The notes: generated by a model not told the origin, from the letters alone. A stretch of DNA of 64,000 nucleotides from a virus (IMGVR_UViG_3300028886_000045), one strand, 5' to 3'. Positions 30,128 to 49,282 are shown, counted from the stretch's first letter. Made by a program: numbers and translations.

Positions 30128-31582
30128 CTATCCCTCCGCCTTTTGCATTTCTGCCATCCTATCCTTTTGTTCCTGTGATTCCACTTGTGCCAAGTTAGCC
30201 TCGTATGCCTTTTCCATTTCTTCCGCATACAGCCTATCAATCTCAGCCTCTTCATCTTCAACCAACCCCAATTTCCTTACAGCCGTTTCCAATGACATCA
30301 ACCCTGCGTCCCTTAACTTGATAATCCTATCAATCTTTGTATCTTCACTATCCTCAAAAGGCTCACCGAACTTGAAAGCAATCTTCATTCTTTCCAACCC
30401 TTCCGACTTCGCGGATTCCGTAACCTTCAGAATACCGACAATGACACTACGCAATCGGTCTATCATTTCCCCATAATGCTCCGTGAGGTTGTCGCGCTTG
30501 ATATAACCAAGCATAAGGGCATTGCGCATCGCTGCACCCGAAAGCGTTCCCATACCCTTCAAGTTGTCATAACTGAAATCGGGCGTGAACGTATCAAATA
30601 GCGTGGATTTCTCCAAATCTTGCTTTTCCTCTACCCTTGATGCGCTATTCTGCGGTGGGTTTATGTAGTCAAAGCGTGAATTTGCGCCCGTGAGTTGTAT
30701 CAGTCTGCCCGGTCTGTCCGTTGCTCCCAACCTATCTATAACATCAGCCGTAGCCATAGCCATAGGGTCGCTAAAGTAGTTGTTCGTGTCACCCCTCTTG
30801 CTATCCAACATTTCCATTCTCTGCAACCTTGGAACTGCACCATCCCACGCTTTCAGTTGATGGAAATACACGGCATTGATTTTTCCCGTTGGGTTTGGAA
30901 ATGTCTCTACCTCCCAACCCTTTTCACCATATTGGCATTCAAAGATAAAATCCTTTGTCAGTATATCCCAATGCCTTACCGTCTTTCCTTCCTTTCCCCT
31001 TAGTCTGTAACCATACGCGAAACTTACCAAGTCACCGTATTGGTCAAACAAAGTCCTCATTCTGTAACCAAGGGAACGTGCCACCACAAAAGGCTTTACG
31101 TTCATCCTTTCACCATTCTTACTCTTCGTAAGGTGGAATACAATAGCACTTTCCGTTTCACTTCCCGCCAATCTTTTAGCCTTTCTTATCAGCGAGTTCA
31201 TTCGGTACTTATCCATGAAACCCTCAAACAATTCAAAGGCTTCCTTTTCGTCATTCTTCAATTCCCATTCAATAGGCTTTCCCAATAGGAAGAACAACTC
31301 GATTTCGTTTATGTACCTTTCCTTCGTGCGCGGTAACTTCTCCGTGATATAATCGGTGTCATTCTTGCGCTTTTTGTTTGGGCGCATCATAACGGGGTGG
31401 TTTTGTGGGTTGTATTCGGAAAGCGCGTTATCCACCTCCCTATCGTTGTTATCCATCATATTGACAACTTTCCACACCTCCCCTTTGTCTATGTATTCGT
31501 ACAACGTGCGCTCCGCGCCCCTTGCATTCAAAGACACATTCTTAAAATGCGTCTTGACATCGTTAATGTAGTTATTATCCAT
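30128..31582 (-). CDS. portal protein (SPP1 gp6-like)
   Basis: 484 aa after TerL; FLLGKP..NPTGKI..NNYFSDP..GTLSGAAM..SLETAV. Confidence 0.85.
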   Translation of the reverse strand: MDNNYINDVKTHFKNVSLNARGAERTLYEYIDKGEVWKVVNMMDNNDREVDNALSEYNPQNHPVMMRPNKKRKNDTDYITEKLPRTKERYINEIELFFLLGKPIEWELKNDEKEAFELFEGFMDKYRMNSLIRKAKRLAGSETESAIVFHLTKSKNGERMNVKPFVVARSLGYRMRTLFDQYGDLVSFAYGYRLRGKEGKTVRHWDILTKDFIFECQYGEKGWEVETFPNPTGKINAVYFHQLKAWDGAVPRLQRMEMLDSKRGDTNNYFSDPMAMATADVIDRLGATDRPGRLIQLTGANSRFDYINPPQNSASRVEEKQDLEKSTLFDTFTPDFSYDNLKGMGTLSGAAMRNALMLGYIKRDNLTEHYGEMIDRLRSVIVGILKVTESAKSEGLERMKIAFKFGEPFEDSEDTKIDRIIKLRDAGLMSLETAVRKLGLVEDEEAEIDRLYAEEMEKAYEANLAQVESQEQKDRMAEMQKAEG

Positions 31583-31584
31583 TC

Positions 31585-32022
31585 CTAACCCTCCTTTTCA
31601 TCTTCGTAAGAACCAATCAGCACGCCATTCGCAAAGAAACATACACCGTCTTCCAATATCAAGTTATACATTTCCTCACTTGGTCTGTGTATGCCCCAAA
31701 CCGCGCTAACGTGCGTGAAACTCTGTTTGCCGTTCAGCATAAGAACCATTACGGCATCCTTGTTCCCAACCCTACCCATTTCAACATCACCGCCTTGCGT
31801 CATAATCGCATTGTGTGGCGATGTCGTAAGGTGATAGTAACCCTTTGGGGATTTCAGCACATACTCGAAAACCCTTAACGGCTTGTTTACGCAAACCACC
31901 TCCTTGACTACCTTGTACCCATCATCGGTCAAAACGCTTTCGCCTACTTCAACCTCACTTATCGGCTTGACACCTTTAGGGTACACAATCAATGTCTTGC
32001 CACTTACTCCGTTACTATTCAT
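31585..32022 (-). CDS. free-standing degenerate Hint (intein-like) domain protein
   Basis: KPISEVEVGESVLT..HLTTSPHN..MYNLILED..FFANGVL; lacks Cys1 and terminal His-Asn. Confidence 0.75.
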   Translation of the reverse strand: MNSNGVSGKTLIVYPKGVKPISEVEVGESVLTDDGYKVVKEVVCVNKPLRVFEYVLKSPKGYYHLTTSPHNAIMTQGGDVEMGRVGNKDAVMVLMLNGKQSFTHVSAVWGIHRPSEEMYNLILEDGVCFFANGVLIGSYEDEKEG

Positions 32023-32034
32023 GTCCTATACTTT

Positions 32035-33324
32035 TTAGAAAATTCCCAAATCATCCTTGTTTACTGCCCTTGGGTGCATAACCTTACCGAATATCTTACC
32101 CATTACCGCATATCTGAATGCGTCCATGCAATGGTTGTATGCGTCTATCGGTTCGTTTATGTACTGACCGTCCTTATCCTTTGCCCATGTGTAGTTACGC
32201 AATTCCTCTTGTAGGTTGTACGACCTCCGCGTAACGTAGATATTATCAAAGTCCAATATCTTAGTGATACCTGCAACGATTGAACCTGCACCCTTCATCA
32301 CGGGGTAGATTATCACGCCACCCAATCCTACCTCGTCTATAAGTCGTGGGTCTGCACTATCGCAGTAAACAAACAAGTCACCATCCTCACTTTTTAGCCT
32401 ACTGATAATGTCACTTGTCAAAAGTCCCTTTTCGTATATCTGCTCGTCCAAATACAAATCGTTCCCAACGACACCGATTTTGACGCAAGCCGTTTCATCG
32501 TTTGTATATCCCCAGTCGATACCCTTGCAAACGTGCTTCGCGTAACTTGGGAACTCATCAACAATGCCCCATTTCTTGTATATCGCGCCCTCTGCTACAT
32601 CTGCCCATTGACCCATCACGATATGCGCGTACTTCTGTGGGTTGTTCTGCTTCATAGCCTCAACCTCCGCCAAAAAGTTGCTTGCACAATGCGCCTTGTT
32701 ATCCAAGTACGTTGTATGTATGTGCAACACGTTTGGGTGGGTGCTTATCTGTATGGGAACACCATCATACTCTACGATTTTGTGCGTGTCCTTGATAAAC
32801 CGCTTATACACGAAATGGTTACTGTCCGTAGGATTCATGATTATTATTATCCTATTCTGCAACCCTTGCTGACGGATTGAAAACATTATCGTGTCAAATT
32901 CTTCTTCGCTCGTCCATTCCTCTGCCTCGTCCACTACAAACGTAGTTATACCGTGAATGGATTTCAGTTTCGCGGTCTGATTTCCCGAACTCGTCTTTAT
33001 TCCCCTAAACATTACATGACTGCCCGTTTTCTTGTTTATCACGTCCGTCTTCGTGCTTCGGAAAAACTTCGTTGTTCCATCCGCGTCCACTTTGTCAAGA
33101 AATTCGGGGATTACGGAGATATTTGCTGACACCATAGTATAACGTGTGTATAGTATCTGATGCGCGATGCGCTTTCCGTCTGCTTCACCCAATTCAAACG
33201 TAAGCCTTTCTATGAATGTTCCCACCGAAAAGGATTTACCACTACCTCGACCGCCCGTTATCAGCAGTATGAACTTTTCCTTATCTTTGTACATCGGCAT
33301 ATACACAGAGTGCGACCTAATCAT
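32035..33324 (-). CDS. terL: terminase large subunit, PBSX family
   Basis: GGRGSGKS, VVDEAEE, MNP, GIDWG, DSADP, NHCMDAFRYA. Confidence 0.95.
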   Translation of the reverse strand: MIRSHSVYMPMYKDKEKFILLITGGRGSGKSFSVGTFIERLTFELGEADGKRIAHQILYTRYTMVSANISVIPEFLDKVDADGTTKFFRSTKTDVINKKTGSHVMFRGIKTSSGNQTAKLKSIHGITTFVVDEAEEWTSEEEFDTIMFSIRQQGLQNRIIIIMNPTDSNHFVYKRFIKDTHKIVEYDGVPIQISTHPNVLHIHTTYLDNKAHCASNFLAEVEAMKQNNPQKYAHIVMGQWADVAEGAIYKKWGIVDEFPSYAKHVCKGIDWGYTNDETACVKIGVVGNDLYLDEQIYEKGLLTSDIISRLKSEDGDLFVYCDSADPRLIDEVGLGGVIIYPVMKGAGSIVAGITKILDFDNIYVTRRSYNLQEELRNYTWAKDKDGQYINEPIDAYNHCMDAFRYAVMGKIFGKVMHPRAVNKDDLGIF

Positions 33325-33539
33325 ATCCGACCCTCCTTCTTTCCGTATGTGGCTTTCTTTACTTTCATTGAAAATTGTTCTATTTTTCCGTATTGCCGTG
33401 AAACATTCTTTCTGACGAGATTTTTTTGTATCACCCTCGGAAAAAGTCTTACTTTTTGCACAGATTTACAACAAATCCACCTAATTGTTTCACGGATTAT
33501 AACAATTTTTCCCAAGTTAATTGTTCGATTTTTCCACCT

Positions 33540-33863
33540 TTACGCTATCTCCTCTAACATATCCCTTATCCGCATAGCGTTCCTATACGCACATGGATAG
33601 TAGTTTACACCCAATTCATAGCATACCAAATCTAATGTGTCTATCAACCGCTCCCTATATCGCCTATCTATTACCGACAATTCGCCTTTCAAGCCTTTGC
33701 CACTCGCGTAATCCATATAACGGTCTTCCGTTCCTATTATCTTAGGCAATACTACCCTACGCCAAATATCATCCAATATCTTTTCTTCCCTATATATATG
33801 GGAATATGCGCGTATTATATATGCGCGGTTGTTAGGTACAACAGATTCAAATCTATGCTTCAT
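33540..33863 (-). CDS. hypothetical protein
   Basis: Between terS and terL. Confidence 0.6.
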   Translation of the reverse strand: MKHRFESVVPNNRAYIIRAYSHIYREEKILDDIWRRVVLPKIIGTEDRYMDYASGKGLKGELSVIDRRYRERLIDTLDLVCYELGVNYYPCAYRNAMRIRDMLEEIA

Positions 33864-34425
33864 CTTCCAATTCCTTTTCGTCCATTTCCTTGCTTATCCA
33901 CTCGCTTATGTCAATACCACGCTTTGCAGGTTCGGTATCGTCACTATCCATTTCCTCACCGCGTTGTATCTTGCGCCATTCGGGGCTGTGGTGATACATC
34001 CACATACTTAACGCTTGCAGATTTGGCGGTGTTTCGTTCTCTACCTCCGTAGTCTGTATCAGTTGGTTGTCCGTAAGTTCCCCATCTATCTCCATCCTAC
34101 GCTTTACCACCGTCTTAGACTTTACCTTGACACCGCCCAAACCTACTTTCAGAATACGCCCCAATACAAGTCTGTTGGTATTGTCACGCGCCTTTTCCAA
34201 TGTGGCTTTCATACGCTTTGAACGCCTTTCGTTCTCCTCGGCTGTCCAATTTCCGTATTTTCCCGCCAACATCTGACTGAATGCGACCTTACCTATTGTT
34301 ATTCCCAACTTATCCTCCAATGCTGACGCGATTTGTGAATCATACGCGCCATTAAAGGCTAATTGGTATAGTTCCAAGTAGAACTCATCGCAATCGTAGT
34401 CGTAGTATTTGGTAATCTTTTCCAT
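33853..34425 (-). CDS. terS: probable terminase small subunit
   Basis: N-terminal HTH-like D.QIA..L; PPNLQALSMW..PEWR; upstream of terL. Confidence 0.7.
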   Translation of the reverse strand: MEKITKYYDYDCDEFYLELYQLAFNGAYDSQIASALEDKLGITIGKVAFSQMLAGKYGNWTAEENERRSKRMKATLEKARDNTNRLVLGRILKVGLGGVKVKSKTVVKRRMEIDGELTDNQLIQTTEVENETPPNLQALSMWMYHHSPEWRKIQRGEEMDSDDTEPAKRGIDISEWISKEMDEKELEDEA

Positions 34426-38809: not shown

Positions 38810-38830
38810 AGTCTTGTTCCTTTTAACGAA

Positions 38831-39160
38831 TTAACCTTTTGAACCGCTTGCACGCCTTACACCGCCCATGTAGGTACTGCGTGAATATTGCTTTTCAAGC
38901 GTTCTTTCGTATAAAGCATCTTGCTCCCCTATTGGTTTTCCCTTTGCTTGTGCGAGCATGGCTTCATACGCCTTTTTATAAGAAGGGGAATTTTGAATGT
39001 TTTTGGCATACCTTTCAGTAATACCCATTACCCTTTGCGCCCTATTCCTAAACTCTTCACTACTTATCTTTTTGGCATCCGCTAACGCCTCATTACGTTC
39101 ACGGATTCGGAACTCTTGGTTTGCCAAATCGCTAATACTTTTTGTCCTTCCCTTTGCCAT
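38831..39160 (-). CDS. small basic protein with C-terminal KG tag
   Basis: MAKGRTKS...QYSRSTYMGGVRRASGSKG*. Confidence 0.85.
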   Translation of the reverse strand: MAKGRTKSISDLANQEFRIRERNEALADAKKISSEEFRNRAQRVMGITERYAKNIQNSPSYKKAYEAMLAQAKGKPIGEQDALYERTLEKQYSRSTYMGGVRRASGSKG

Positions 39161-39172
39161 AACCTATTTTTT

Positions 39173-39517
39173 TTAACCTTTAGAACCACTTGCACGCCTA
39201 ACGCCACCCATGTATGTTGAGCGCGAATATTGGCGTGTTGAAGCCTTTTGTATGTCACGCGCCATAGCACGCAACCTTTCCCTATAATCACCGCTTGCAT
39301 TATTGCGATTAAAGAAAGCGTTCTTCGTCTTTTGGTACGAAGGTGTGCTTTCTATATTCCGCAAATACCTATCACCCGTCCGCGCTATCCTTTCCGTGCG
39401 CGTCCTAAATGTTTCTTCGCTTATCTTTCCGCTATCCCTTAATGCAGTAGCCGTATTATAAGCACGTTGATATTGGTTGTATATCTGCTCTGCGGATTTC
39501 GTTCTTTGCTTTGCCAT
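39173..39517 (-). CDS. small basic protein with C-terminal KG tag
   Basis: MAKQRTKS...QYSRSTYMGGVRRASGSKG*. Confidence 0.85.
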   Translation of the reverse strand: MAKQRTKSAEQIYNQYQRAYNTATALRDSGKISEETFRTRTERIARTGDRYLRNIESTPSYQKTKNAFFNRNNASGDYRERLRAMARDIQKASTRQYSRSTYMGGVRRASGSKG

Positions 39518-39520
39518 ATC

Positions 39521-39652
39521 TTAACCTTTTCCACCACTTGCGCGTCTGATTCCACCCATTGCGCCACCATTAAACGCCCTATCACCTAACGCCCTTCTTA
39601 CATTTCCGCTATATGCCCTACGGAAATATGCCATTCTCATATCTGTACGCAT
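39521..39652 (-). CDS. 43-aa peptide with C-terminal KG tag (absent from ORF track)
   Basis: Hand-translated MRTDMRMAYFRRAYSGNVRRALGDRAFNGGAMGGIRRASGGKG*; start may be a later Met. Confidence 0.8.
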   Translation of the reverse strand: MRTDMRMAYFRRAYSGNVRRALGDRAFNGGAMGGIRRASGGKG

Positions 39653-39667
39653 ACCCTAACCCTTTCT

Positions 39668-40009
39668 TTATCCTTTGCCACCACTTGCACGCCTTACACC
39701 GCCCATATAGGTGGAACGTGAGTATTGACGAGCGTCATTTTTTTCTATATATGGTTTATCTGCTTCAATCAACGACATTCCTGTCAAATGTGCATTCGCC
39801 TTATCCATCCTTTTGACGGTATTCTGATAGGAAGGGGTTTGGCTGATATTATGCGCATATTTCGCCTCTAACCTTGACGCAGTTTCCTTTCGCGTGTCAT
39901 ATTGCCGACTGTTATATCTTCCTTGTGCCAATCCTTCTTGTGCCAAACTCTGAATACGGATAAATTGATTGTATAAATCGTTAATGCTTTTTGTTTTTTG
40001 TTTTGCCAT
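39668..40009 (-). CDS. small basic protein with C-terminal KG tag
   Basis: MAKQKTKS...QYSRSTYMGGVRRASGGKG*; -7 box at 40041. Confidence 0.85.
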   Translation of the reverse strand: MAKQKTKSINDLYNQFIRIQSLAQEGLAQGRYNSRQYDTRKETASRLEAKYAHNISQTPSYQNTVKRMDKANAHLTGMSLIEADKPYIEKNDARQYSRSTYMGGVRRASGGKG

Positions 40010-40179
40010 ATTGGTATATTTTTTTATTGATTATTTTTTGCAAAGATAATACATTTCCGTTTCTTTGCTTATTGTATTTTTGCTTTCTTAATCACTTGAA
40101 ACACAATGAAGAAATACAAACAAAGAAAACCGCCTATCAAATGATAAACGGCTTTCGTAATAACAAACACATATATATA

Positions 40180-41064
40180 CTATTCACTTTCTTCTTCTGA
40201 AAATGCGTCATAGTCACCATCAATGTCTATAATATCCACCCTTTCCAACATATACGATGCTTGAAGGGTCTTTTCCATTGGGTCGCGGTGCATTTGCTCC
40301 ATAAACGCCATTTTCTCAGAGGGGGAGTTGAAACTAAGGATAACGTAACTAAGCATACCCCCATCATTTTCCAAATCGCTTTTGTTGTTTATCCTTTCCT
40401 TGATTTTTGCGACTTCGTTGTGTCTTGCAAGTTGGTTTTCTTCTGTATCTTCGTAGAAATCCACTTTGCGGTTTATCTTCGTGTTTTCTTCTGTTTCTTT
40501 GGTCTGCTTATCAACCTCTGCAAGTTCCTTGTTTTCCTTTGTCACGTCTTCTTTGCGCCATTGCCTTTCTTCTTTCGGCTTTTCTTCTGCGTCCACTTTC
40601 GAGCGTGCCTCCTCTTCTGCCAAATCCACGACTTCCAAGCCAAGCATTTCCATATCGAAATCGTCAAAGCCCGCGCTCTTGTAGTCTATATCCGACAACA
40701 TTTCCCTTAACATATCATCGTCATATTCACCTTGCGCCTTTCTGTTGTTCATGAAAAGGTTTTGTTCCTTTTCCGTCTGCAAGTCCAACTCTACGACATC
40801 AACCCTTAACATATAGTCGGTTTCCAAGTCGTTCTCGTCATACTTGTTTACCTCGTCCAATATGCTTACTTTCTGATGCCCCGAAACAATATTTCCCGTG
40901 GTCTTGTTATAGACAATTCCACCCATAACGCCAACCTTTTTCAAGTTAGCCTTCAGTAGTTTGCGCGATTCTTCGCTTATCTTTCGTGGGTTGTATTCCG
41001 CTAAGTGTATCTCACTCCTCTTGATTTCAACACTTTGCGCTTGCTTTATCTTGCTTTGCTTCAT
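40180..41064 (-). CDS. ParB/Srx N-terminal-like protein with acidic tail (copy 3)
   Basis: YNPRKI..GGIVYN..TGNIVSGHQ..EKEQNLFMNN..QGEYD. Confidence 0.85.
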   Translation of the reverse strand: MKQSKIKQAQSVEIKRSEIHLAEYNPRKISEESRKLLKANLKKVGVMGGIVYNKTTGNIVSGHQKVSILDEVNKYDENDLETDYMLRVDVVELDLQTEKEQNLFMNNRKAQGEYDDDMLREMLSDIDYKSAGFDDFDMEMLGLEVVDLAEEEARSKVDAEEKPKEERQWRKEDVTKENKELAEVDKQTKETEENTKINRKVDFYEDTEENQLARHNEVAKIKERINNKSDLENDGGMLSYVILSFNSPSEKMAFMEQMHRDPMEKTLQASYMLERVDIIDIDGDYDAFSEEESE

Positions 41065-41755
41065 AGTCTGCTATTATTTTGATGCTATACGGAAACTGCT
41101 TAATCATACGCGCGTAATCATTCGGAAACTTTTCGCGCATTACCAACATAGTATCTAAGTCTATACCAAAGCCTTGTGATACCATATTGGGATTATAGAC
41201 AAACGGCTTTATAAGATTTCGCGATTGTATATACTGCAACACTTCTTTGTTTGTCCACACCGCCAAAGGATAAACCATACCCTCCTTCCTTATGTACCCC
41301 GTCTTTGCGTACATCTTCAACCGCATACGCTTCATATAGCCATCAACACCCTTCATGCCACTAAACGCATAGTGCTGTCCGCTATCGTTCCTTACCCATT
41401 CCTCAACCTCGCCAACACTTCTTTCCCTTTTGTGGTTTGGGTCTTTCTTTGGCAGTTTGTACCTATCGTCTTCATCCATGAAGAAACCGAACTTCTCAAA
41501 CGCATCCGCTTGATAGTGCTTTATCTGCCTAACTTCGACATTGCCGTAACTTTCTGCCCACTTGATATAAGGCTGAACGTGGTCTAAATTGGGAACGAGG
41601 TACATATAATAGCAAATAACCTTATTGAAACGTGTTGCCAACATATCCAATAAGGCTATGCCATCTTTGCCACCCGCAGAATAGAACAAAACGGCTGTGT
41701 CCGTTTCCTTGCGGACGGTGTTTATTATCGCTATCGTATCAGCAAACTTTCCCAT
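41027..41755 (-). CDS. PAPS-reductase-like PP-loop protein (copy 3)
   Basis: YSAGGKDG PP-loop, GMKGVDG..R, YPLAVWT..VLQYI. Confidence 0.85.
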   Translation of the reverse strand: MGKFADTIAIINTVRKETDTAVLFYSAGGKDGIALLDMLATRFNKVICYYMYLVPNLDHVQPYIKWAESYGNVEVRQIKHYQADAFEKFGFFMDEDDRYKLPKKDPNHKRERSVGEVEEWVRNDSGQHYAFSGMKGVDGYMKRMRLKMYAKTGYIRKEGMVYPLAVWTNKEVLQYIQSRNLIKPFVYNPNMVSQGFGIDLDTMLVMREKFPNDYARMIKQFPYSIKIIADYEAKQDKASAKC

Positions 41756-41758
41756 ATC

Positions 41759-42427
41759 CTACAATTTTTTCAGATAATCGTAAACCTCATCTATCGCGGA
41801 AACGACCTTTTGGGTCTTTTCCTTATCCATTGCCATATCGTCACGCATATATATACGCTTGTTTAACTCAATCATAAAAGATAGATACTGCTTGCTACAT
41901 TGTGGGGTTAGGGAGTTTCCGTAAGGCGTATTAACGCCCACCTTGAAACCATGCTTTCTGAAAATGTCACAAACTGAATCTATAATATTTTCATTCGGCT
42001 TGCTCCAATCGTCATTATACCCAATACACACATCCACATCGCTCAACTCCTTTGGGAATGAATGGCAATCTACCAATATAGGGTTTTCGGCTTCTGTCAG
42101 CGATTTGCTAATCTTTGCCAAATAATCCTTTCGCGCGTCCAAAAGAAACTTTCGCGTGCTGTTGTTTAGTGGTTTTCTTGTGGCTCTCCCCATATATTCG
42201 TATAGGATGCCTTGACCCATGCTTTCCATTATGTCATTTTCCAACCTTTCAACATCGCACACGAAACGCGACCAACCGCAAATGTGTGAAATGATGCCTA
42301 CCCTATCAAAAATGACATCGGTAAACCAATCAGTCCACACATTAACGTACTTTATTACTTCTTTACCCCAACCGAAAAGGAAAACGCCCTTATCGCTTGA
42401 ATGTGGTATATTCAGTATAATATCCAT
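41759..42427 (-). CDS. N-formylglutamate amidohydrolase family protein
   Basis: IPHSS, TDWFTD, SRFVCDVER, DCHSFP, CIG, N.PY, MIELNKR. Confidence 0.85.
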   Translation of the reverse strand: MDIILNIPHSSDKGVFLFGWGKEVIKYVNVWTDWFTDVIFDRVGIISHICGWSRFVCDVERLENDIMESMGQGILYEYMGRATRKPLNNSTRKFLLDARKDYLAKISKSLTEAENPILVDCHSFPKELSDVDVCIGYNDDWSKPNENIIDSVCDIFRKHGFKVGVNTPYGNSLTPQCSKQYLSFMIELNKRIYMRDDMAMDKEKTQKVVSAIDEVYDYLKKL

Positions 42428-42435
42428 TTCTTTGT

Positions 42436-43149
42436 TTAGCCTTTGCTACCCATTGCCCTTCTCGCGCCATTCGCGACACCACCGCTCCGCTCGTTTCTTA
42501 TTATTTCCGCTAACTTATCGTTTCGCGCGTTAATCAAGCGGTCATACGCGGGGTCTTCGTTCTTTTCGCCATAGGACTTATAGGTGTCCATTTTGAAATC
42601 CTCTTGCTTGGTGTTTCTTGCTTTTATCAAGGCACTTAAAGACTTTGGCAAAATCATCGCAACCACATTAGGCTCACCATCCCTTGCTTGGTTATACCCA
42701 GTGGGTTCAAAATGATGATTAAATGGTATATATCCGAAAGCCTTTGCACCAAATTTCGCATACATACTTGGTAAGTTGCTTTTGCCCGTCCCCTCGAAAC
42801 AATCCAAGGAACGACCTCCATTTGCAACCGCGTGCGCCATGATAGTAGCCATGCCACCTTTTACCCCCGAAACATTGTAAACCGAAACCACGTCCCTTCC
42901 GTGCAACGCATATCCGATTTTTCCGTCTTTAGACATAAAGCACCGATATTCGCTTTTGTTCGCATATTCTTTTTGTTCGTGAACATCTACCATCCACCTA
43001 TTCGCGCTTGGAATACTTGCTTTTGCCTTAGATATTGCGTTAAAGAAACGATTTCCGTTTGTTGGTGACAATTCTATATTTGCGTGTTCAATCCCCGCCT
43101 TTGTTAAGGCTTTGAGCACCGCCTTTCCACTTACCGACTTCTTTCTAAC
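42436..43149 (-). CDS. GNAT-like protein with C-terminal KG tag; proposed GTT start (237 aa)
   Basis: Frame open from GTT at 43149 (VRKKSVSGKAVLK) directly after TGA; GGAGG 8 nt upstream; DVVSVY..GG.SLDCF..LP.MY.KFG; ends ARRAMGSKG*. ORF track uses GTG 43119. Confidence 0.7.
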   Translation of the reverse strand, partial: VRKKSVSGKAVLKALTKAGIEHANIELSPTNGNRFFNAISKAKASIPSANRWMVDVHEQKEYANKSEYRCFMSKDGKIGYALHGRDVVSVYNVSGVKGGMATIMAHAVANGGRSLDCFEGTGKSNLPSMYAKFGAKAFGYIPFNHHFEPTGYNQARDGEPNVVAMILPKSLSALIKARNTKQEDFKMDTYKSYGEKNEDPAYDRLINARNDKLAEIIRNERSGGVANGARRAMGSKG

Positions 43150-43161
43150 TCAGCAACCCTC

Positions 43162-43359
43162 CTATTGACTTATGAAATCAGCATAGTCTTTTGGTGACAT
43201 CTTATCACCAATCGCAGTTCTGATTTCCCTATTGGAAACCGCCCCCATTTCATTCTCCAACTCCCTTTTGGTATAAACGGGCTTTCCGTTCTGTTGCATA
43301 GACTCCAACTCCTTTCTGAGTGCGTCCTTATACTTTTCAATCTGCTTTTCTGTTACCAT
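43162..43359 (-). CDS. small hypothetical protein
   Basis: 65 aa between ASCH gene and GTT gene; its TAG overlaps the GGAGG. Confidence 0.7.
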   Translation of the reverse strand: MVTEKQIEKYKDALRKELESMQQNGKPVYTKRELENEMGAVSNREIRTAIGDKMSPKDYADFISQ

Positions 43360-43371
43360 AACTTACACTTT

Positions 43372-43758
43372 TTACTTGTTTATATTTTCGACATCAAGCA
43401 CCGCGCCCAAATGATACCACACTTGACTTTCGTAGTATTCAATGCCGTTTTCTTCAAACGTAATATCGTTTCCGTTCTCGTCCACACAGATAACAAACTC
43501 CGCGCTTTCCACTTCCACCAACATACGCGGTGCGTTCTGTCTCCGTCCGTTTATCAGATACAACGCATCATATTCGCGTGGCTTGATTTCCGCGTCCTCA
43601 TCTTCCATTTCCGCAATATACTTGTTTGCATTGCTTGGATATATGTAGCGGTGCTCTACCTTTTGCCTACCTTGCATGATTTCAACGAAATTGTTTCTTG
43701 TAATCTGTAAGGTAAGCACTTTATGATTCTGTGCGTATTCTTTTACTTTTGCGTTCAT
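43372..43758 (-). CDS. ASCH-domain protein
   Basis: LTLQI..FVEIMQGRQKVEHR..YDALYLING..YHLG. Confidence 0.8.
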   Translation of the reverse strand: MNAKVKEYAQNHKVLTLQITRNNFVEIMQGRQKVEHRYIYPSNANKYIAEMEDEDAEIKPREYDALYLINGRRQNAPRMLVEVESAEFVICVDENGNDITFEENGIEYYESQVWYHLGAVLDVENINK

Positions 43759-43767
43759 ATTCTTTGT

Positions 43768-43846
43768 TTGTTACGACTTTTTAGGGGTTGTTACGACTTG
43801 TTACGAGGGTTGTTACGACACAAAACCGTAACAAAAATCGTTACGA
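43768..43846. repeat. cluster of six (T)TGTTACGA-like motifs
   Basis: Direct copies at 43768, 43788, 43798, 43810, 43838 (TCG variant); inverted CCGTAACAA at 43826. Confidence 0.8.
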
Positions 43847-43859
43847 CCCACCCCCTTTG

Positions 43860-43933
43860 TTGCGGATAAAGGACTCGAACCCTTGACCACTTGCAAGTTA
43901 AACAAGTATGCTAACCAACTGCACCAATCCGCG
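43860..43933 (-). tRNA. non-canonical tRNA: initiator-type acceptor stem, anticodon AAC, U37/U38
   Basis: CGCGGAT-TG-GTGC AGTTGGTTA GCAT-A-CTTGT TTAACTT GCAAG-TGGTC-AAGGG TTCGAGT CCTTT-ATCCGCA-A; promoter 43943..43974; CCA not encoded. Confidence 0.85.
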
Positions 43934-43989
43934 ATGTTGGTACAAAGGTACTAATTTTTTCGCGTCCTTACAAAGTTTTACCAACTTTT

Positions 43990-44424
43990 TTATTCACTTT
44001 GATATTCGTGCAAAGCATCCTCAACCATTTGCAAAGCCTTTCCGTGCTTCTTCTGCAAATCGGGGTACTTCACGCCACGCCTATAATTGTGAAGCAAATC
44101 ATTGTGCTTTACTTTCAATGCAAGCATATTGTGCGAATCTATGATTTTCTGAACGTAGTCAAAATATCCGATTTCCTTTTTTCTGTGGGTTAGCAATTTT
44201 AGGGCTTCAATGCAATCCTCAGATATGCCCAACACTCTTAAATCTTCACCGCACACGTTACAGTCTTCCATAACATCATGAAGAATGCCAACAACTTTCT
44301 CGTTGTAATTCTCACCCATCATGCCAACTGCCAAAGGATGCAGTATATAGGGCTTGTTATCCCTATCATACTGCCCTTCGTGCATTTTGCTTGCATATTC
44401 TATGACTTTGAATATTGATACCAT
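43990..44424 (-). CDS. HD-domain hydrolase, SpoT/Mesh1-like (small alarmone hydrolase type)
   Basis: HEGQ..PYILHP..V..LHDVMED..LLT..VK..D..HN. Confidence 0.9.
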   Translation of the reverse strand: MVSIFKVIEYASKMHEGQYDRDNKPYILHPLAVGMMGENYNEKVVGILHDVMEDCNVCGEDLRVLGISEDCIEALKLLTHRKKEIGYFDYVQKIIDSHNMLALKVKHNDLLHNYRRGVKYPDLQKKHGKALQMVEDALHEYQSE

Positions 44425-44426
44425 TT

Positions 44427-44645
44427 CTAACCGATTTTTACATTCTCGTACTCGTCCTTTGAAATCTCAACACCGTAGTTGTAGCAATCGCTTGCAACCT
44501 TAGAATTTGTGATTTCGATTTCATTGCCACCGCTTACCTTGCGCACACACTTGATATATCCCTTTGTCGTGTGCCAATAGTGGCAGTAAACCATTACGTT
44601 GTCCTCGTACTTTTTGTAAATCTCGTAAATAACATTCTTTTTCAT
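44427..44645 (-). CDS. small hypothetical protein
   Basis: Follows promoter 44686..44717; ends EISKDEYE. Confidence 0.65.
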   Translation of the reverse strand: MKKNVIYEIYKKYEDNVMVYCHYWHTTKGYIKCVRKVSGGNEIEITNSKVASDCYNYGVEISKDEYENVKIG

Positions 44646-44731
44646 ATCTTTGTCGTTTTATAAGGTTTATCTCCTAATTACACTACAAAGGTACAATATT
44701 TATTTGAAATTACCAAATTTCTTAACACTTT

Positions 44732-45430
44732 TTAAGAAAAAACTGAATAATACCTTCTTGACGCTTGCCTTACACCTTGTTTATTTCTGCGTCCCTTGGT
44801 TGTGCCACCGCGTGACTGCTCGTAGTACATATGACCCTCGCCCGCGTTATAACCCGTGGTTCGCTTTATATTAAGGTATTCGTCACGACCGAGTATCTTG
44901 GCAGCACGCGCAGGCGGTTCTTTGGCGTAAATCATCTTTGGCGTATTGACTTGTATCTCAGCCACGACCTTTCCAACCTTGACATTTACGATATTACCAC
45001 TATACCCATCGAATTTGTCTGCCGTTTGCACCTTTGTCCTTATGTGCCTACTATCCGCGCCCAAATCCCTCAGTATCTTAGGAATATCCGCTTTGTTCGC
45101 AACAATCGTTGTCCTTACGGCATCCTTGATGTCTGCGACCTTATCACCAGCCTTGACTTTCCTTTCAATCGAATCCTTACCCTTTAGGTTTATCGGTGTG
45201 ACCCTTGCGCCATACTTCTTAGCAATATCCACCGCCATACCTTGCACTTCACCGCTAACAGCCTTTGCCCTTGACATAAGGCTATCAATCGCGCGATTTA
45301 CTGCCTTTGGTAGTTGCACGTTGGCTTTGCCACTATTCAAGCCACCACCGCCACCGCCTTTCCTTGATGCTATCGACTCCATAAGGAACATACCATAGCA
45401 CTCATATTCTATTCTTTTCAGTATTTCCAT
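44732..45430 (-). CDS. RelA/SpoT-type small alarmone synthetase-like nucleotidyltransferase
   Basis: LK..SIERK, DAVRTTI, GYSG, EIQVNT, H.YYE; Gly6 tract near N-terminus. Confidence 0.8.
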   Translation of the reverse strand: MEILKRIEYECYGMFLMESIASRKGGGGGGLNSGKANVQLPKAVNRAIDSLMSRAKAVSGEVQGMAVDIAKKYGARVTPINLKGKDSIERKVKAGDKVADIKDAVRTTIVANKADIPKILRDLGADSRHIRTKVQTADKFDGYSGNIVNVKVGKVVAEIQVNTPKMIYAKEPPARAAKILGRDEYLNIKRTTGYNAGEGHMYYEQSRGGTTKGRRNKQGVRQASRRYYSVFS

Positions 45431-45524: not shown

Positions 45525-46022
45525 TTATGATAGGTTTGTGTCTAATATTTCGTCTATGACAAAGAAGAATGCTTTTGGTCTTTCCGTTTCGCTTATCGTG
45601 CCTTTCCTTATGTCATCCTCAACAGCCTTTAGGCTTGAATCCATTTCGTGACAACCGTACTCGCTTTGCAGAAATCCCACATCATCCGCGTCAATAGTCA
45701 TATTTCCGTTATACGACACACTTACATCCAAATACCAAGTATTATTGTAGTTGTGAAAGTGTATCTTACCGACCTCCCTTTGCAAGTCCACCACGGAATA
45801 CACCTTTTCCTTATCATAGCCTTTCTTCACCATTTGCTCCGACCACTTGTAAACATCATCGTCTAAAAGCCTATCACAATAGAAATCGCTGTAATCCCTA
45901 AATTCAACATTCTTTTCCCCCTTGACTATGCGCATAGCCTCATCACGCTTCATTATCAGACTTAGCGTTTCTATTGGCTTTGCGTTTGGGGGTGTTGGTA
46001 ATTCTTTATTCTTCATATTCAT
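45525..46022 (-). CDS. ASCH-domain protein
   Basis: LSLIM..IVKGEKNVEFR..IHFHNYNNTW.LDV; paralog of 49819..50346. Confidence 0.8.
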   Translation of the reverse strand: MNMKNKELPTPPNAKPIETLSLIMKRDEAMRIVKGEKNVEFRDYSDFYCDRLLDDDVYKWSEQMVKKGYDKEKVYSVVDLQREVGKIHFHNYNNTWYLDVSVSYNGNMTIDADDVGFLQSEYGCHEMDSSLKAVEDDIRKGTISETERPKAFFFVIDEILDTNLS

Positions 46023-46852
46023 TCAATGTCTAACGCTTCTATAATCACTTGTGGGTCTATCACCATATTAGGGGTACACCTTATGCCTAACACTTCACAA
46101 AACGCTTCTTTCTGCGCTTGTGTCTTAAAGTCCAAGACTACATACCTATCCGCATTATCCAACAACTTTTCCCCTTCGTTCCTAACGTGTTCTTTCTGCG
46201 CCTTGACTTCTTCTTTCGTCATGTGTGGCTGTGCGTCCAAGCGTGATTGAAACTCCGCGTTGGTTTCTTCCACCTTTGGCAGTACCGTGACCGCTTCACG
46301 CCTTTGCGCTTGTGGCTCTGTCTTTTCCCTTACCTTTTCCGTTTCTTCTGTTTCCGTGGCTTGTTTCGGTGCAAAGGCATCCTCTATGGTTTCAATTTCC
46401 CCTAAATCGTCATTGTCGGTTTCATAGTCGCGCAAATCAAGTATTTGGTTATATTCTTCATCGGAAATGCCTATTTCCTTGTAGTCAATATCCTCAATGA
46501 TATTTGCCACCAAAGCATAATCCACCTTAGAATTAGCCATTGCCATAAACGAAAGTTGGTTTTTCTCCTCCTTCTCGTCCATTTCCACAACTTCCACCTT
46601 TATATCGTAATCGGTGTTTGGTGTCCCATCGTACTTCTGTATCAAATCAACAGACATTAGCCTTTTGTGACCATCTACCAAATTACCCGTCCGTCTGTTC
46701 CAAACCATACCGCCCAATAATCCGACCTTTCGGATATTCTTTACTTGCAGTTTGATTTGCTCATCGGAATGGTTCTTAATATTGCAAGGGTTCATGTTTA
46801 TCTGTGAACGCTTGACAACCAAAGTTTCGCTTCTGTTTATATCCTTTGCCAT
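46019..46852 (-). CDS. ParB/Srx-like protein (copy 2)
   Basis: NIKNHSDEQIKLQ..GG.VWN..TGNLVDGHKR. Confidence 0.85.
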   Translation of the reverse strand: MAKDINRSETLVVKRSQINMNPCNIKNHSDEQIKLQVKNIRKVGLLGGMVWNRRTGNLVDGHKRLMSVDLIQKYDGTPNTDYDIKVEVVEMDEKEEKNQLSFMAMANSKVDYALVANIIEDIDYKEIGISDEEYNQILDLRDYETDNDDLGEIETIEDAFAPKQATETEETEKVREKTEPQAQRREAVTVLPKVEETNAEFQSRLDAQPHMTKEEVKAQKEHVRNEGEKLLDNADRYVVLDFKTQAQKEAFCEVLGIRCTPNMVIDPQVIIEALDIE

Positions 46853-46853
46853 A

Positions 46854-47630
46854 TTACGTTTCCTCTTCTGTGTAAACCTTAACGCCTTTCATTCTTGATA
46901 GCCTTTTCAGTTCTTTTTCTGCTTCTTTCTGTGCTTTCCTTTCGGCTTCTTCTGCCTCCCATTTCGGTATGATAACGCGCGTTGCGGGAAACTGCGAATA
47001 TATCAATTCCAAATCATCGGGGAAATCCCTTTCCAAGAATTTCAAGTAATGATAATCTATAATATCATCACCACTTGTTACCTCTTTCTTATTCGACCAT
47101 TCGGGGGATTTTAGGCAATTTTCTGCTATATACTCCATGCAATCCCTATTCTTGTACGTTGAAAGCGGATAGAACATTTTACCCTTCCAACTTATAGCCA
47201 TTTTGCCATCTTTATAGGAACGTAGCATTAACCGCCTATTCAACGAGTCCGCTTGCTTGAATCCCACACAACACCATTCAATCCCTACCTTTTCCCTTAC
47301 CTTTCCCACTATCTCCGTAAACCGCCAATACCTTTGATTGGGATTTCCCCTCATGCCTTGGAATCCGTACTTTCTGTATGAAAACAGCGTGTAATGTGGT
47401 ACTTGTATCAATTCCACGTTTGGGTATCTTCGCTTTACGAAAAGAAAATAACGCCTTATATGGCGCATATTGGGTACTATATACATAAAGCACACCACTA
47501 CGCGCCTAAACTTAGGGTAAACCAAATCCATTAATACTATGCTGTCTTTCCCCGACATACTGTGCATCAGTATTATTTCATCCGTTTCCCTTGCTATATC
47601 GTCTATTATTTCTTTTGCCCTATCCAACAT
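46854..47630 (-). CDS. PAPS-reductase-like PP-loop protein (copy 2)
   Basis: HSMSGKDS, GFKQADSLNRR, YPLS. Confidence 0.85.
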   Translation of the reverse strand: MLDRAKEIIDDIARETDEIILMHSMSGKDSIVLMDLVYPKFRRVVVCFMYIVPNMRHIRRYFLFVKRRYPNVELIQVPHYTLFSYRKYGFQGMRGNPNQRYWRFTEIVGKVREKVGIEWCCVGFKQADSLNRRLMLRSYKDGKMAISWKGKMFYPLSTYKNRDCMEYIAENCLKSPEWSNKKEVTSGDDIIDYHYLKFLERDFPDDLELIYSQFPATRVIIPKWEAEEAERKAQKEAEKELKRLSRMKGVKVYTEEET

Positions 47631-47632
47631 TT

Positions 47633-48565
47633 CTACTCAAACATACTGAGGAACTTTGAGGCTTCAATTACCAAATTTGCCGTGTTGTTAAATCCAAACA
47701 TTTCACAAAAATGCTCCTTTTCTTCCATATTGGCAAAACTTATAACCACATATTTCTCCGCATCGTCTAACTGATTGGATGCGTGCACTTCACAATGTTT
47801 CTTTGCACCCTTGACCTCTTCTTTCGTCATGTGTGGCATTTCTTCGTGCATTTTCACAATTTCTTCGCTTGTCATTTCCCTACTTGGTAGTTCTGTGACT
47901 GCTTCCCTTTGCGGTGCTTGCTGTGGCATTTGCTGTGGTACTTGATACGTTTGTTCCCCACCGTCACCTTCTGACACCCCACTCGCTTGCATTGCGTCTG
48001 TCTGTGGTGTTTCCGTCTGTGGTGTTTCCGCTTGTGGTACTTCGTCTTTCGGCTGTTCTGTTGCCTTTGGCTTTGGTGCAAACGCATCTTCCATTGTAGC
48101 CATCATGCCAATGGTGCTTTCTTCGTAATCAGCCTCATATTCTTTCAAGTCCAAAATCTGCTCATATTCCTCTTCTGAAATGCCGACCTCCTTGTAGTCT
48201 ATATCGTCTATGATATGTGCAACAAGGTTGTAATCAGCCTTTGAATTTGCCAAAGCCATAAAAGCCAACTGCTCCTTTTCGGCTTTCGCGTCCAATTCGG
48301 TTACTTCGACCTTGATTTCATAATCGGTTTCGGGCGTGCCATCATACTTGTTAAGTATATCCAATGACTGAACGCGCCTATTTCCGTCTATGATATTCCC
48401 CGTTACCGAGTTAATCAGCACACCGCCAAAATATCCCTTTGTCCTAATGTTTTTGGCTTGCAACTTGATTTGCTCATCGGAATGGTTCTTAATATTGTAA
48501 GGTGTTAGGTTGATTTCCGACCTTTTAATTACCTTGGTTTCGCTTTTACTATAATTCTTTGCCAT
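47633..48565 (-). CDS. ParB/Srx-like protein (copy 1) with low-complexity linker
   Basis: NIKNHSDEQIKLQ..TGNIIDGNRR; PQ(A/T)ET repeats. Confidence 0.85.
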   Translation of the reverse strand: MAKNYSKSETKVIKRSEINLTPYNIKNHSDEQIKLQAKNIRTKGYFGGVLINSVTGNIIDGNRRVQSLDILNKYDGTPETDYEIKVEVTELDAKAEKEQLAFMALANSKADYNLVAHIIDDIDYKEVGISEEEYEQILDLKEYEADYEESTIGMMATMEDAFAPKPKATEQPKDEVPQAETPQTETPQTDAMQASGVSEGDGGEQTYQVPQQMPQQAPQREAVTELPSREMTSEEIVKMHEEMPHMTKEEVKGAKKHCEVHASNQLDDAEKYVVISFANMEEKEHFCEMFGFNNTANLVIEASKFLSMFE

Positions 48566-48568
48566 ATG

Positions 48569-49282
48569 CTAAGATTGTTTTTGCTCTTGTTTCATTTTAC
48601 TTTCTGTCTGACTGATAATAACGCACGTTGCAGGAAAAGCGTTGTATATCTTTTGCAAGTCGCTTGGAAAGTTCTGTTGCAGATACTTTAAGTAACTATA
48701 ATTCGTTATATCTACTCCGTTACTTTGAAATTTTCCGTTAGTGCTATACCTTTCGGGGTTCTTCAAATGGTTCTTTTCGATATAATCCAATACATCGCTA
48801 TTCTTGTAGGTTGAAAGCGGATAGCACATTTTGGTCTTCCAATTTATCGCTTCCTTTCCGTCCTTATAGGAACGTAGCATTAATCGCCTATTCAAAGAAT
48901 CCGACTGCTTGAAACCCAAAACACACCATTCTATGCCGAACCTTTCCCTCACCTTTCCTATGATTTCCGAAAGATTGTATTTCCTTTGTCTGCCATCGCC
49001 TACCGTACCCATAAAACCCTCTTTTCGGTACTGCATCAAGCCGTAGTGCGGAATCTGAACAAACTCGACATTTGGGTATTTCCTTTTCGTGTACGCATAG
49101 TATCGGTTTATGTGTGATAGGTTAGGAACAACGTACATATAGACACACAAAACCCTCTTGAAATGTGGGTAAACCAAATCCATTAACGCTATTGAATCTT
49201 TACCCGACATTGAATGCAACAGAATAACGCTATCCGTTTCCTTTGCAACGTCTTCAATAATTTCTTTTGCCCTATCTAACAT
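48569..49282 (-). CDS. PAPS-reductase-like PP-loop protein (copy 1)
   Basis: HSMSGKDS, GFKQSDSLNRR, YPLS. Confidence 0.85.
   Translation of the reverse strand: MLDRAKEIIEDVAKETDSVILLHSMSGKDSIALMDLVYPHFKRVLCVYMYVVPNLSHINRYYAYTKRKYPNVEFVQIPHYGLMQYRKEGFMGTVGDGRQRKYNLSEIIGKVRERFGIEWCVLGFKQSDSLNRRLMLRSYKDGKEAINWKTKMCYPLSTYKNSDVLDYIEKNHLKNPERYSTNGKFQSNGVDITNYSYLKYLQQNFPSDLQKIYNAFPATCVIISQTESKMKQEQKQS

Follow-up and report, generated by a model that had tools for sequence, protein, structure and literature searches.

A portable C-terminal tail shared by unrelated proteins of a large Bacteroidota phage is a candidate docking peptide for capsid loading

The DNA analysed here (the window, 64,000 nucleotides, to which all positions refer) is part of the 178,667-bp genome of a large uncultured Bacteroidota phage, IMGVR_UViG_3300028886_000045. 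On its minus strand it carries a group of genes whose products end in the same short tail, together with packaging genes and other neighbours. The features that matter for the following are:

30128-31582, minus strand: portal, in the packaging module 30128..34425 downstream of the tailed genes
32035-33324, minus strand: TerL, same module
33853-34425, minus strand: TerS-like protein, same module
38831..39160, minus strand: small basic protein, paralog A, 109 aa, pI 10.0, ending ..YSRSTYMGGVRRASGSKG
39173..39517, minus strand: small basic protein, paralog B, 114 aa, pI 10.8, tail as in paralog A
39521..39652, minus strand: 43-aa ORF of a second tailed mini-family, ending ..MGGIRRASGGKG, with D-M-R-M-A-Y-F followed by the tail
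39668..40009, minus strand: small basic protein, paralog C, 113 aa, tail ..VRRASGGKG
40180..41064, minus strand: ParB-like protein (phrog_9353, phrog_620), without tail, a conserved neighbour of the tailed genes
41027..41755, minus strand: PAPS-reductase-type PP-loop protein (PF01507) with the motif S-A-G-G-K-D-G, without tail, a conserved neighbour
41759..42427, minus strand: N-formylglutamate amidohydrolase family protein (PF05013)
42436..43151, minus strand: free-standing GNAT-fold protein, 227 aa from the GTG at 43119, ending ..GARRAMGSKG
43990-44424, minus strand: SpoT-type HD hydrolase, in the three-gene block 43990..45430
44427-44645, minus strand: weak Tis1-like match, same block
44732-45430, minus strand: Tas1/Apk-like (p)ppApp synthetase domain without MuF, same block
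46019..49282, minus strand: two more tandem PAPS-reductase/ParB pairs (48569-49282 with 47633-48565, and 46854-47630 with 46019-46852)

The block 43990..45430 is a second cargo-type module, which is free-standing in this phage (PMC10083569), and the PF05013 gene lies between the GNAT and PAPS-reductase genes in this phage's lineage only.

A six-frame regular-expression scan for stop-terminated frames ending in RRA.G.KG, covering the window and the whole 178,667-bp genome, returned exactly five ORFs ending in RRA(S/M)G(S/G)KG and no others; the number agrees with a previous reading made from the sequence only. The five frames are all on the minus strand and span at most 4.3 kb. Their tail codons differ synonymously (Arg-Arg is AGG CGT or AGA AGG, and Ser is AGC, AGT, TCA or TCT), and the conservation is therefore, as had also been proposed, at the protein level; it does not reflect a recent DNA copy. 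The tail is portable, i.e. it is present on otherwise unrelated proteins, and at the protein level this part of the earlier interpretation stands. The DNA methylases of this phage have the C-termini QLSLF, QPTLF or QPTLDLF, which we read as C-terminal docking peptides.

The three full-length paralogs align end to end and are 44-47% identical; they do not, as had been suggested, share only their ends around divergent middles, while the common N-terminus MAKx(R/K)TKS is correct on an alignment of all three. All three fall into a family of basic proteins of ~100 aa (81 clusters, pI 10-11) that is not catalogued, has a variable middle and is present in phages of 100-190 kb in up to 19 copies per genome, with 7 matches in lineage G1 and 19 in G2. 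The body of these proteins is rich in helix-forming residues, as judged from sequence composition. No Pfam family was matched, ThiS and ubiquitin included, and no homologs were found among GenBank phages. The genes are located just upstream of terS-terL-portal, often interleaved with the PAPS-reductase/ParB pair. The usual C-terminus of the family is ..YSRSTYMGLSNG, in 49 of the 81 clusters a Y-M-G motif begins 7 residues from the end, and the tail is conserved far above the level of the protein bodies. All five proteins in the window stop at a terminal Gly, as previously noted; among homologs this residue is not invariant, being present in 69 of the 81 clusters (other termini are S, R, K, Q, A, T and I). 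The 43-aa ORF had been described as little more than the tag; in fact it contains the module found at the C-terminus of a second small family, in which the motif D-[LMV]-R-x-A-[FY] precedes the tail.

The 227-aa protein is predicted to have a GNAT fold (AlphaFold2, pLDDT 89.8); the top PDB matches of the model are all GNAT acetyltransferases (probability ~1.0, target-normalised TM-score 0.48-0.57), and there was no Pfam match even at E<=1. The frame probably opens at GTT 43149, adding (M)RKKSVSGKAV, and the gene is a free-standing frame of 227-238 aa with stop codons on both sides and no fusion. In the model the last ~8 residues form a flexible tail (pLDDT about 60) after a long C-terminal helix. 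Comparison with the small family gave an hhalign probability of only 1.4%, and this GNAT-like protein is, as previously noted, unrelated to the paralogs outside the tail.

Comparison across phages shows that the domain family of the GNAT-fold enzyme is of cargo type. Of 80 IMG/VR loci, about 68 have the GNAT-type domain (phrog_2563) within frames of 800-3900 aa encoding polyvalent proteins, those sampled carrying LPD1, LPD38 and a YgjP-like metallopeptidase, and the best BFVD fold matches are proteins of >1000 aa. In Microbacterium phages the domain is the C-terminal domain of a 'minor capsid protein' whose gene adjoins that of the portal, e.g. Barnstormer gp4, the N-terminus of which matches VG15 and phrog_193 and the C-terminus phrog_2563. 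Both polyvalent and minor-capsid proteins are considered to be packaged and then injected (PMC5512222, PMC5576092). The segment G-G-(R/K)-K-L-D is conserved in the family of the 227-aa protein. The tail is restricted to the free-standing copies of ~220 aa, and the giant proteins lack it. A terminal Gly is present in 22 and absent in 23 of 45 GNAT-family proteins, which keep R-x-A-(L/M)-G-G-G-(K/R) tails over long divergence.

Tails in most relatives have the form (Y/A)(M/L)GL(S/T)xG or R-x-A-(L/M)-G-G-G-(K/R). The general form, which covers the tail of this phage as well, is a basic or aromatic patch, a small hydrophobic residue, a Gly and a further 2-4 small residues, in this order; the penultimate position is unconstrained (N, A, Q, K, G, S), and non-Gly termini of homologs in the two families are K, R, N, T, S, Q, A or I. 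Within this phage lineage the tail is found on five or more protein groups that are unrelated to one another: the small family, the GNAT-fold family, a 176-aa protein (L001:7378-7908) ending in ..YSMGLSAG, a group in G2 ending in ..EYRxRR(R/K)(A/S)(Q/K)GLSxG, and a mini-family ending in ..YYD(M/V)RV..GL(A/S)GG. The variants are lineage-specific and mostly common to the unrelated carriers of one genome: RRASG(S/G)KG and RRAMGSKG in this phage (G0); ..MGL(S/T)NG, ..MGLSAG and ..LGLTSG in G1; ..LRAAAGSEG and ..LRTALGGSN in L035-type loci; and ..IRAAGGTTG and ..VRGALGGGK in L025-type loci. The latter are in part discordant, with a small-family member ending in ..YMGLI and the GNAT protein in ..ALGGGK. 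This match of variants within genomes suggests that the tail has co-evolved with a phage-encoded reader.

The tailed genes adjoin the packaging genes, lying directly upstream of terS-terL-portal in every locus, and a PAPS-reductase-like PP-loop/ParB pair is found beside them in every lineage with enough context (G0, G1, G2, L005, L025-type and L035-type loci, L107 and L108), in keeping with the co-occurrence predicted by the sequence-only reading. Because the synteny is real, the pair may handle the tail. The PP-loop domain matches PF01507 (E 4.4e-8), and the ParB-like assignment comes from PHROGs only (phrog_620, E 1.7e-19), with no Pfam ParBc match. In both domain types the phage pair resembles DndC/DndB, SspD and IbrA/IbrB (PMC12839542, PMC4490671), and phages often place such PAPS-reductase/ParB pairs just upstream of the terminase genes, as in Bacteroides phage BS-TP2. 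In contrast to the Dnd and Ssp systems no Dnd or Ssp partner genes were seen, and the connection of the phage pair to the tails is one of synteny.

What the tail does can be explained in several ways. It might dock its carriers on a hub outside the capsid, for which the PAPS-reductase/ParB module, the terminase and a host hub protein are candidates; the carriers would be accessory or specificity subunits, or competitors, of a complex for DNA modification or packaging in the infected cell. The constant company of the PAPS-reductase/ParB genes, the small genes placed between them in L005, L107 and L108, and the presence of C-terminal docking peptides elsewhere in the phage (the methylase endings given above) agree with such a hub. 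We consider it unlikely, however, given that BS-TP2 has the pair without any tailed protein, that the copy numbers of pairs and small genes are unmatched (3 to 4, 1 to 7 and 1 to 19), that in G1 12 kb separate the PAPS gene from the ParB gene, and that a single enzyme could hardly accommodate nineteen hypervariable paralogs as its subunits; a conserved host hub is made less likely by the changes of the tail from lineage to lineage. Quite unlikely in our view is that the tail has no dedicated reader and is an intrinsic basic, flexible element for nucleic acid binding or solubility, shared through recombination or convergence among the small proteins and retained by ancestry in the GNAT family. 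The carriers are basic, Arg/Lys/Tyr-rich stretches precede the tails, and the long-lived tails of the GNAT family fit with this. Against it, the register to the stop codon is exact (compare the fixed position of Y-M-G), the tail is far more conserved than the bodies, the same variant occurs on different families within one genome, and the tail is absent where the domain is embedded in polyvalent proteins.

Two further explanations appear very improbable to us. One, the mechanism originally put forward, is that the terminal Gly carboxylate is adenylated by the PAPS-reductase-type PP-loop enzyme and then thiocarboxylated or ligated to DNA, RNA or protein, as modelled on ubiquitin, ThiS, MoaD or TtuB. 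PP-loop enzymes can adenylate carboxylates, the Asn-synthetase-type lasso cyclases have peptide carboxylates as substrates, and TtuA uses the Gly-Gly thiocarboxylate of TtuB. Together with this chemistry, the frequent terminal Gly of the small family and the PP-loop enzyme that is always nearby count in favour, and the carriers resemble ThiS, MoaD, TtuB and Urm1 in small size, frequent C-terminal Gly and a nearby ATP-pyrophosphatase-type enzyme. They differ from these in that no beta-grasp fold is apparent (one carrier has a GNAT fold, the others are basic and rich in helix-forming residues), that Gly-Gly is not invariant and that an E1-like enzyme was not found near the locus, and in that the tail is common to a GNAT enzyme and many hypervariable paralogs. 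Nor is the terminal Gly conserved as expected: 12 of the 81 small-family clusters and 23 of the 45 homologs in the GNAT family lack it, and the residue before it varies. Searches with Pfam and PHROG identified no E1-like (ThiF/MoeB), cysteine-desulfurase or rhodanese gene among the annotated neighbours from 36300 to 49282, which comprise a methylase, PAPS reductases, ParB-like proteins, FGase, an HD protein and a Tas1-like protein. BS-TP2 and the unmatched copy numbers weigh against this mechanism as well, and the characterised relatives DndC/DndB and SspD act on DNA (PMC12839542). The other is that the tail is a C-terminal degron or protease-recognition signal that determines when toxic or early-acting proteins are cleared from the producing cell, in line with one carrier being an enzyme of a toxin-like cargo family and with the adjoining toxin/immunity trio (PMC10083569). 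It leaves the multi-copy expansion of proteins bound for degradation unexplained, and no dedicated protease gene was found in the block. Known C-terminal degrons of bacteria are non-polar and ssrA-like, and the tail is unlike them.

The explanation that we tentatively favour, at somewhat less than an even chance, is that the tail acts as a portable docking peptide at the C-terminus, by which cargo is brought into the procapsid and later co-injected. In its favour are the spread of the tail over unrelated proteins, the packaged proteins in which the GNAT-type domain is otherwise found, the agreement of tail variants within genomes, the flexible tail of the model and the position of the tailed genes beside the packaging module. 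Capsid loading was named as an alternative in the sequence-only reading, and as a predicted role it is the one towards which the evidence points; that the reader is a component of the head (shell interior, scaffold or portal) and that the carriers are present in virions is what we infer from it. A Phage_Mu_F (MuF) domain that could bear cargo was not detectable in the G0 genome, and the Tas1/Apk-like domain, another cargo of the MuF type, likewise stands alone (PMC10083569). With the T4 internal proteins the small family has in common a basic character, multiple copies and a variable middle (PMC3012670). On the other hand, the tight interleaving with PAPS-reductase/ParB genes in L005, L107 and L108 suits a reader there equally well, and the known capsid-targeting signals of phages (T4, P1 DarB) are N-terminal (PMC3012670, PMC9024508). 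Major capsid protein, scaffold and protease were looked for in this phage and none was identified.

Known targeting systems offer parallels. Encapsulins are HK97-fold shells loaded through a short C-terminal Gly/aliphatic/basic peptide, e.g. GSLxIGSLK, GGDLGIRK or LTVGSLRR (PMC10960027). Family 1 peptides and the phage tail are alike in being short, conserved and C-terminal on unrelated cargo, via a flexible linker, and in being rich in Gly/Ser with one to three aliphatic residues and often a basic terminus. The likeness is qualitative only, as the consensus of the phage tail, (Y/A)(M/L)GLSxG or RRAxGxKG, differs. The encapsulin reader is the interior of an HK97-fold shell, which is the fold of tailed-phage capsids, whereas binding of the phage tail to a shell is putative; encapsulin cargo is a metabolic enzyme, whereas that of an infectious phage would be a multi-copy basic family plus an effector enzyme. 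In T4 (internal proteins, Alt) and P1 (DarB) a short portable peptide is present on diverse, fast-evolving small basic proteins and an enzyme; it loads the prohead for co-injection and suffices for foreign proteins (PMC3012670, PMC9024508). These signals are N-terminal, and that of T4 is removed by the prohead protease, whereas the tail is at the extreme C-terminus with nothing downstream, without a T4-type leader with an aliphatic-x-Glu prohead-protease site or any sign of cleavage; the P1 Dar proteins have no common consensus (PMC9024508), whereas the tail has a clear one. Finally, the GNAT-type and Tas1/Apk-like domains are embedded in polyvalent, MuF or minor-capsid effectors in other phages (PMC5512222, PMC5576092, PMC10083569) but are free-standing in this phage, where the GNAT protein bears the tail and has no fusion partner.

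If the tail is a capsid-loading peptide, it would recruit otherwise unrelated proteins to the assembling procapsid, where they would be packaged together with the DNA, to be carried into the next host. The cargo would be a diversifying arsenal of small basic proteins together with free-standing effector enzymes such as the GNAT-fold protein. In most other phages the same GNAT-type domain is covalently fused to a polyvalent or minor-capsid protein, a fusion that the tail may replace in this phage.

The window covers bases 1-63457, in reverse complement, of a virus record that consists of a single contig (178,667 bp, estimated to be 96% complete), and nearly all of its genes are on one strand. 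A six-frame scan for frames ending in RRA.G.KG and a stop codon gave exactly five, and the same five only in the whole genome, confirming the five tailed proteins of the sequence-only reading:

Tailed frames in the window (six-frame scan)
38831-39160, minus strand, small-family paralog
39173-39517, minus strand, small-family paralog
39521-39652, minus strand, 43-aa ORF
39668-40009, minus strand, small-family paralog
42436-43119, minus strand, free-standing 227-aa GNAT-fold protein

The tail codons differ synonymously between the five copies, and thus the tail is conserved at the protein level, as had been proposed, and is not a recent DNA copy; the same variation rules out an overlapping RNA element as the cause of the conservation. 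The exact degenerate DNA pattern of this tail and an alignment of the close paralogs (A1) were both without match in IMG/VR and the JGI metagenomes, and the RRAxGxKG form is confined to close relatives, which are known only as proteins.

The three ~110-aa window proteins are basic (pI 10.0-10.8). They share the N-terminus MAKx(R/K)TKS, as noted earlier from the sequence, but the likeness is not limited to their ends since they can be aligned over the full length as paralogs with 44-47% identity. Close homologs are few and reside on contigs of up to 178-188 kb, while 81 clusters (defined at 50% identity) of 70-166 aa were recovered when 1.84 billion representative proteins were searched with a profile. 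The hallmarks of this family are MA(R/K)x(K/R)KSxxDI at the N-terminus, R..RYxxNIxxTxSY in the centre and a very conserved C-terminus, (R/K)YS(R/Q)STYMGL(S/N)xG-COOH, where the Y-M-G motif starts exactly seven residues from the end in 49 of the 81 clusters; the RRASGSKG extension is present only in the approximately eight clusters closest to the window phage. The small-family termini are among the most conserved in these genomes. No member matches a Pfam, PHROG or NCBIfam model, tblastn detected no homolog among 50,697 GenBank phages, and the small protein had no match in the ESM Atlas; these 81 clusters constitute an uncatalogued family. The number of matches is seven in one related complete phage (G1, 129 kb) and 19 in another (G2, 165 kb), and none was found in the Bacteroides phage BS-TP2 genome. 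Moreover, the family is present in two Bacteroidales MAG contigs and a third pattern match is in a Cyclobacteriaceae MAG, which assigns the hosts to Bacteroidota.

The 227-aa protein gave no match to Pfam or PDB sequences, and only unnamed viral clusters in the ESM Atlas. Its AlphaFold2 model (pLDDT 89.8, 38-sequence alignment as input) has GNAT acetyltransferases as all of its top PDB structure matches, and its last ~8 residues are unstructured and follow a 30-residue helix. The viral structures that match best (E 2e-13, query TM 0.79) are parts of proteins longer than 1000 aa, one of which bears the name large polyvalent protein. The domain lies inside frames of 800-3900 aa in about 68 of the 80 IMG/VR loci that encode it, and the sampled giants bear the marks of polyvalent proteins, as they also have LPD1, LPD38 and a YgjP-like metallopeptidase. 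Polyvalent proteins have been argued by Iyer et al. to be packaged and delivered with the phage DNA, and the domains listed there as recurring in them include GNAT, RelA/SpoT, ParB, methylase and MuF (PMC5512222). Microbacterium phages have the GNAT-type domain as the C-terminal part (phrog_2563) of a 524-aa "minor capsid protein"; its gene adjoins the portal gene, and its N-terminus gives matches to Pfam VG15 and phrog_193. The tail is present only on free-standing versions of ~190-240 aa, in three types: ..A(L/M)GL(S/T)xG, ..R(G/A)A(L/M)GGG(K/R), and ..LMPGIG and similar. No tail-like sequence was seen after the domain in the giant proteins, and the idea that the tail descends from a linker or processing site of these was rejected. 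Translation of the gene probably begins before the GTG, since the frame opens directly after a TGA (GTT AGA AAG AAG TCG) and the RKKS..LKALTKAGIEH encoded there can be aligned with the N-terminal region that is conserved in the GNAT family.

Apart from the tail, the small and GNAT families are unrelated (hhalign probability 1.4%), and further carriers were identified: a 176-aa protein ending in ..YSMGLSAG in two related loci (L001 and L003; its C-terminal fragment is in L002), four G2 proteins of 124-289 aa ending in ..EYRxRR(R/K)(A/S)(Q/K)GLSxG, and 99- and 119-aa proteins of the MAG contigs ending in ..YYD(M/V)RV..GL(A/S)GG. These had no match in Pfam, PHROG or NCBIfam. The 43-aa ORF, earlier described as little more than the tag, aligns with the 99-/119-aa group via D-M-R-M-A-Y-F and thus belongs, as a short member, to a second tailed family rather than being a first-family remnant. 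Comparison of four lineages suggests that tail variants tend to agree within one genome:

C-terminal tails of small or mini proteins and of GNAT proteins
Window phage: small/mini RRASG(S/G)KG; GNAT RRAMGSKG
G1: small/mini ..MGL(S/T)NG and ..MGLSAG; GNAT ..LGLTSG
L035-type loci: small/mini ..LRAAAGSEG; GNAT ..LRTALGGSN
L025-type loci: small/mini ..IRAAGGTTG; GNAT ..VRGALGGGK

An exception is an L025-type small-family member ending in ..YMGLI. A relative whose GNAT protein is 83% identical to that of the window has the tail RRANGSKG.

The best-supported reading of these data is that the tail is a portable C-terminal docking peptide with a reader that co-evolves with it and that, for this reason, is probably phage-encoded. 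A tail that acts intrinsically, with no reader, would have to be set against this agreement between unrelated carriers and we find it improbable; that it is a degron we consider very unlikely. In the same phage, a clamp-binding-type pentapeptide is a second, different C-terminal docking tail: many of the DNA methyltransferases of the genome end in QLSLF, QPTLF or QPTLDLF (36300-37019 and 61482-63053, minus strand, in the window; G000:C1:164200-168793 in the genome).

The tailed genes are part of a block leading to the packaging genes:

Other features of the window, the first five in order along the coding strand
46019-49282, minus strand, two tandem PAPS-reductase/ParB pairs, first in the block
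43990-45430, minus strand, Tas1/Apk-like (p)ppApp synthetase, weak Tis1-like match and SpoT-type HD hydrolase, after the two pairs
43859-43933, minus strand, tRNA with anticodon AAC, 0.7 kb upstream of the GNAT gene
43119-43151, minus strand, conserved N-terminal GNAT segment upstream of the first canonical start
40180-41755, minus strand, third PAPS-reductase/ParB pair, adjoining the tailed small genes
8457-9650, minus strand, transposase-family protein of 397 aa (phrog_506, E 3e-119)

After the tRNA come the genes for the GNAT protein, an FGase-family protein and the third pair, followed by the four tailed small genes, a 445-aa repeat protein, a DNA methylase, TerS, TerL and portal. The synthetase domain (232 aa; PDB 6ox6_A, E 6.7e-19), the Tis1-immunity-like ORF (72 aa, weak match) and the hydrolase form a predicted trio of the Apk2-Tis1-Aph1 type, which is described for a Bacteroides caccae prophage (PMC10083569); the window synthetase differs in having no MuF, and its first ~22 residues lead into a GGGGGG linker. 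The 445-aa protein (37472-38809, minus strand), encoded immediately downstream of the tailed genes, is built from an internally duplicated ~200-aa unit that has the motif VDMGLPSGTLWA..NLGA..YYFGETQGYQG, and had no match in Pfam or PHROG. In ~100-kb relatives, a ~200-aa protein with an N-terminus that looks like a GH108-type muramidase is encoded between the tailed GNAT gene and a small-family gene (L025:10652-11266 and L029:9933-10538).

The sequence-only reading had linked the tail to the neighbouring PP-loop/ParB genes, and the synteny is real: the order PAPS reductase, ParB, tailed GNAT, small gene, TerS, TerL and portal recurs, with permutations, in the ~100-kb relatives, and in L005, L107 and L108 the small genes have the PAPS-reductase gene on one side and the ParB gene on the other. 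BS-TP2, however, has a pair directly upstream of its terminase genes without a small-family match (nor did the GNAT-type query match this phage), in G1 the two genes are 12 kb apart, and three pairs in the window phage, against one in relatives just upstream of the terminase genes, do not match the tailed copy numbers, which rules out one small paralog per pair. A hub other than the capsid, the PAPS/ParB module being one candidate, has some support from gene order, and we regard it as rather unlikely. The PAPS-reductase-like protein adjoining the tailed genes (41027-41755, minus strand) ends in ..KASAKC, with a terminal Cys that the other two copies do not have. The TerS-like proteins end in acidic residues and lack the tail, and the idea that the tail is a TerL-binding tail of TerS was rejected.

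An ubiquitin/ThiS-type handle, as also suggested earlier, is disfavoured by several observations. The terminal Gly, expected to be conserved, is common and not invariant (69/81 small-family clusters, 22/45 GNAT-family proteins), and the penultimate residue is free. One carrier is a GNAT fold and the other a basic protein with a body rich in helix-forming residues and no ThiS or ubiquitin match, no E1-like enzyme is present among the annotated neighbours of the tailed genes, and DndC/DndB and SspD, which are the characterised relatives of the PAPS-reductase/ParB pair, have DNA as their target (PMC12839542). Activation of the tail carboxylate would need new chemistry tolerating K, R, N and T termini, and its probability appears very low.

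Loading into the head is the most likely role of the docking peptide, although we put it at somewhat below an even chance. Five observations point this way: the domain family of the enzyme carrier is welded into packaged proteins in other phages, the tail appears precisely when this weld is absent, the tailed genes are beside packaging genes, the genome gave no MuF match, and the other carriers resemble T4 internal proteins in being small, basic, multi-copy and hypervariable apart from a conserved address (PMC3012670). In T4 and for P1 DarB, capsid targeting by short portable signals has been proven (PMC9024508); these signals are N-terminal, in contrast to the tail of the window phage. Encapsulin loading signals are C-terminal Gly/aliphatic/basic peptides and the shells have the HK97 fold (PMC10960027). 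A check of ten candidates and a search with PF05065 did not turn up the major capsid protein, scaffold or protease. We tentatively suggest that in one lineage of large Bacteroidota phages an encapsulin-like consensus C-terminal peptide may load the HK97-type capsid with cargo for co-injection. The cargo would be a modular, fast-diversifying arsenal of free-standing effector enzymes together with small basic proteins, of which one genome encodes up to ~19, and loading by a tail would serve as an alternative, without fusion, to polyvalent and MuF-fused proteins.

If true, the tail would be the first signal for phage cargo loading whose C-terminal consensus can be recognised, and a functional link between phage heads and encapsulins; its likeness to the targeting peptides of encapsulins would also be informative on how encapsulins and phage capsids are related in evolution. 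As a capsid-loading signal, the tail would provide a readable sequence rule to predict the proteins that are brought into the host by large uncultured phages of gut and rumen, explain how effector domains normally welded into giant polyvalent proteins work as separate genes, and offer a short C-terminal tag to load foreign proteins into phage heads. Whatever the mechanism, an uncatalogued protein family has been defined.
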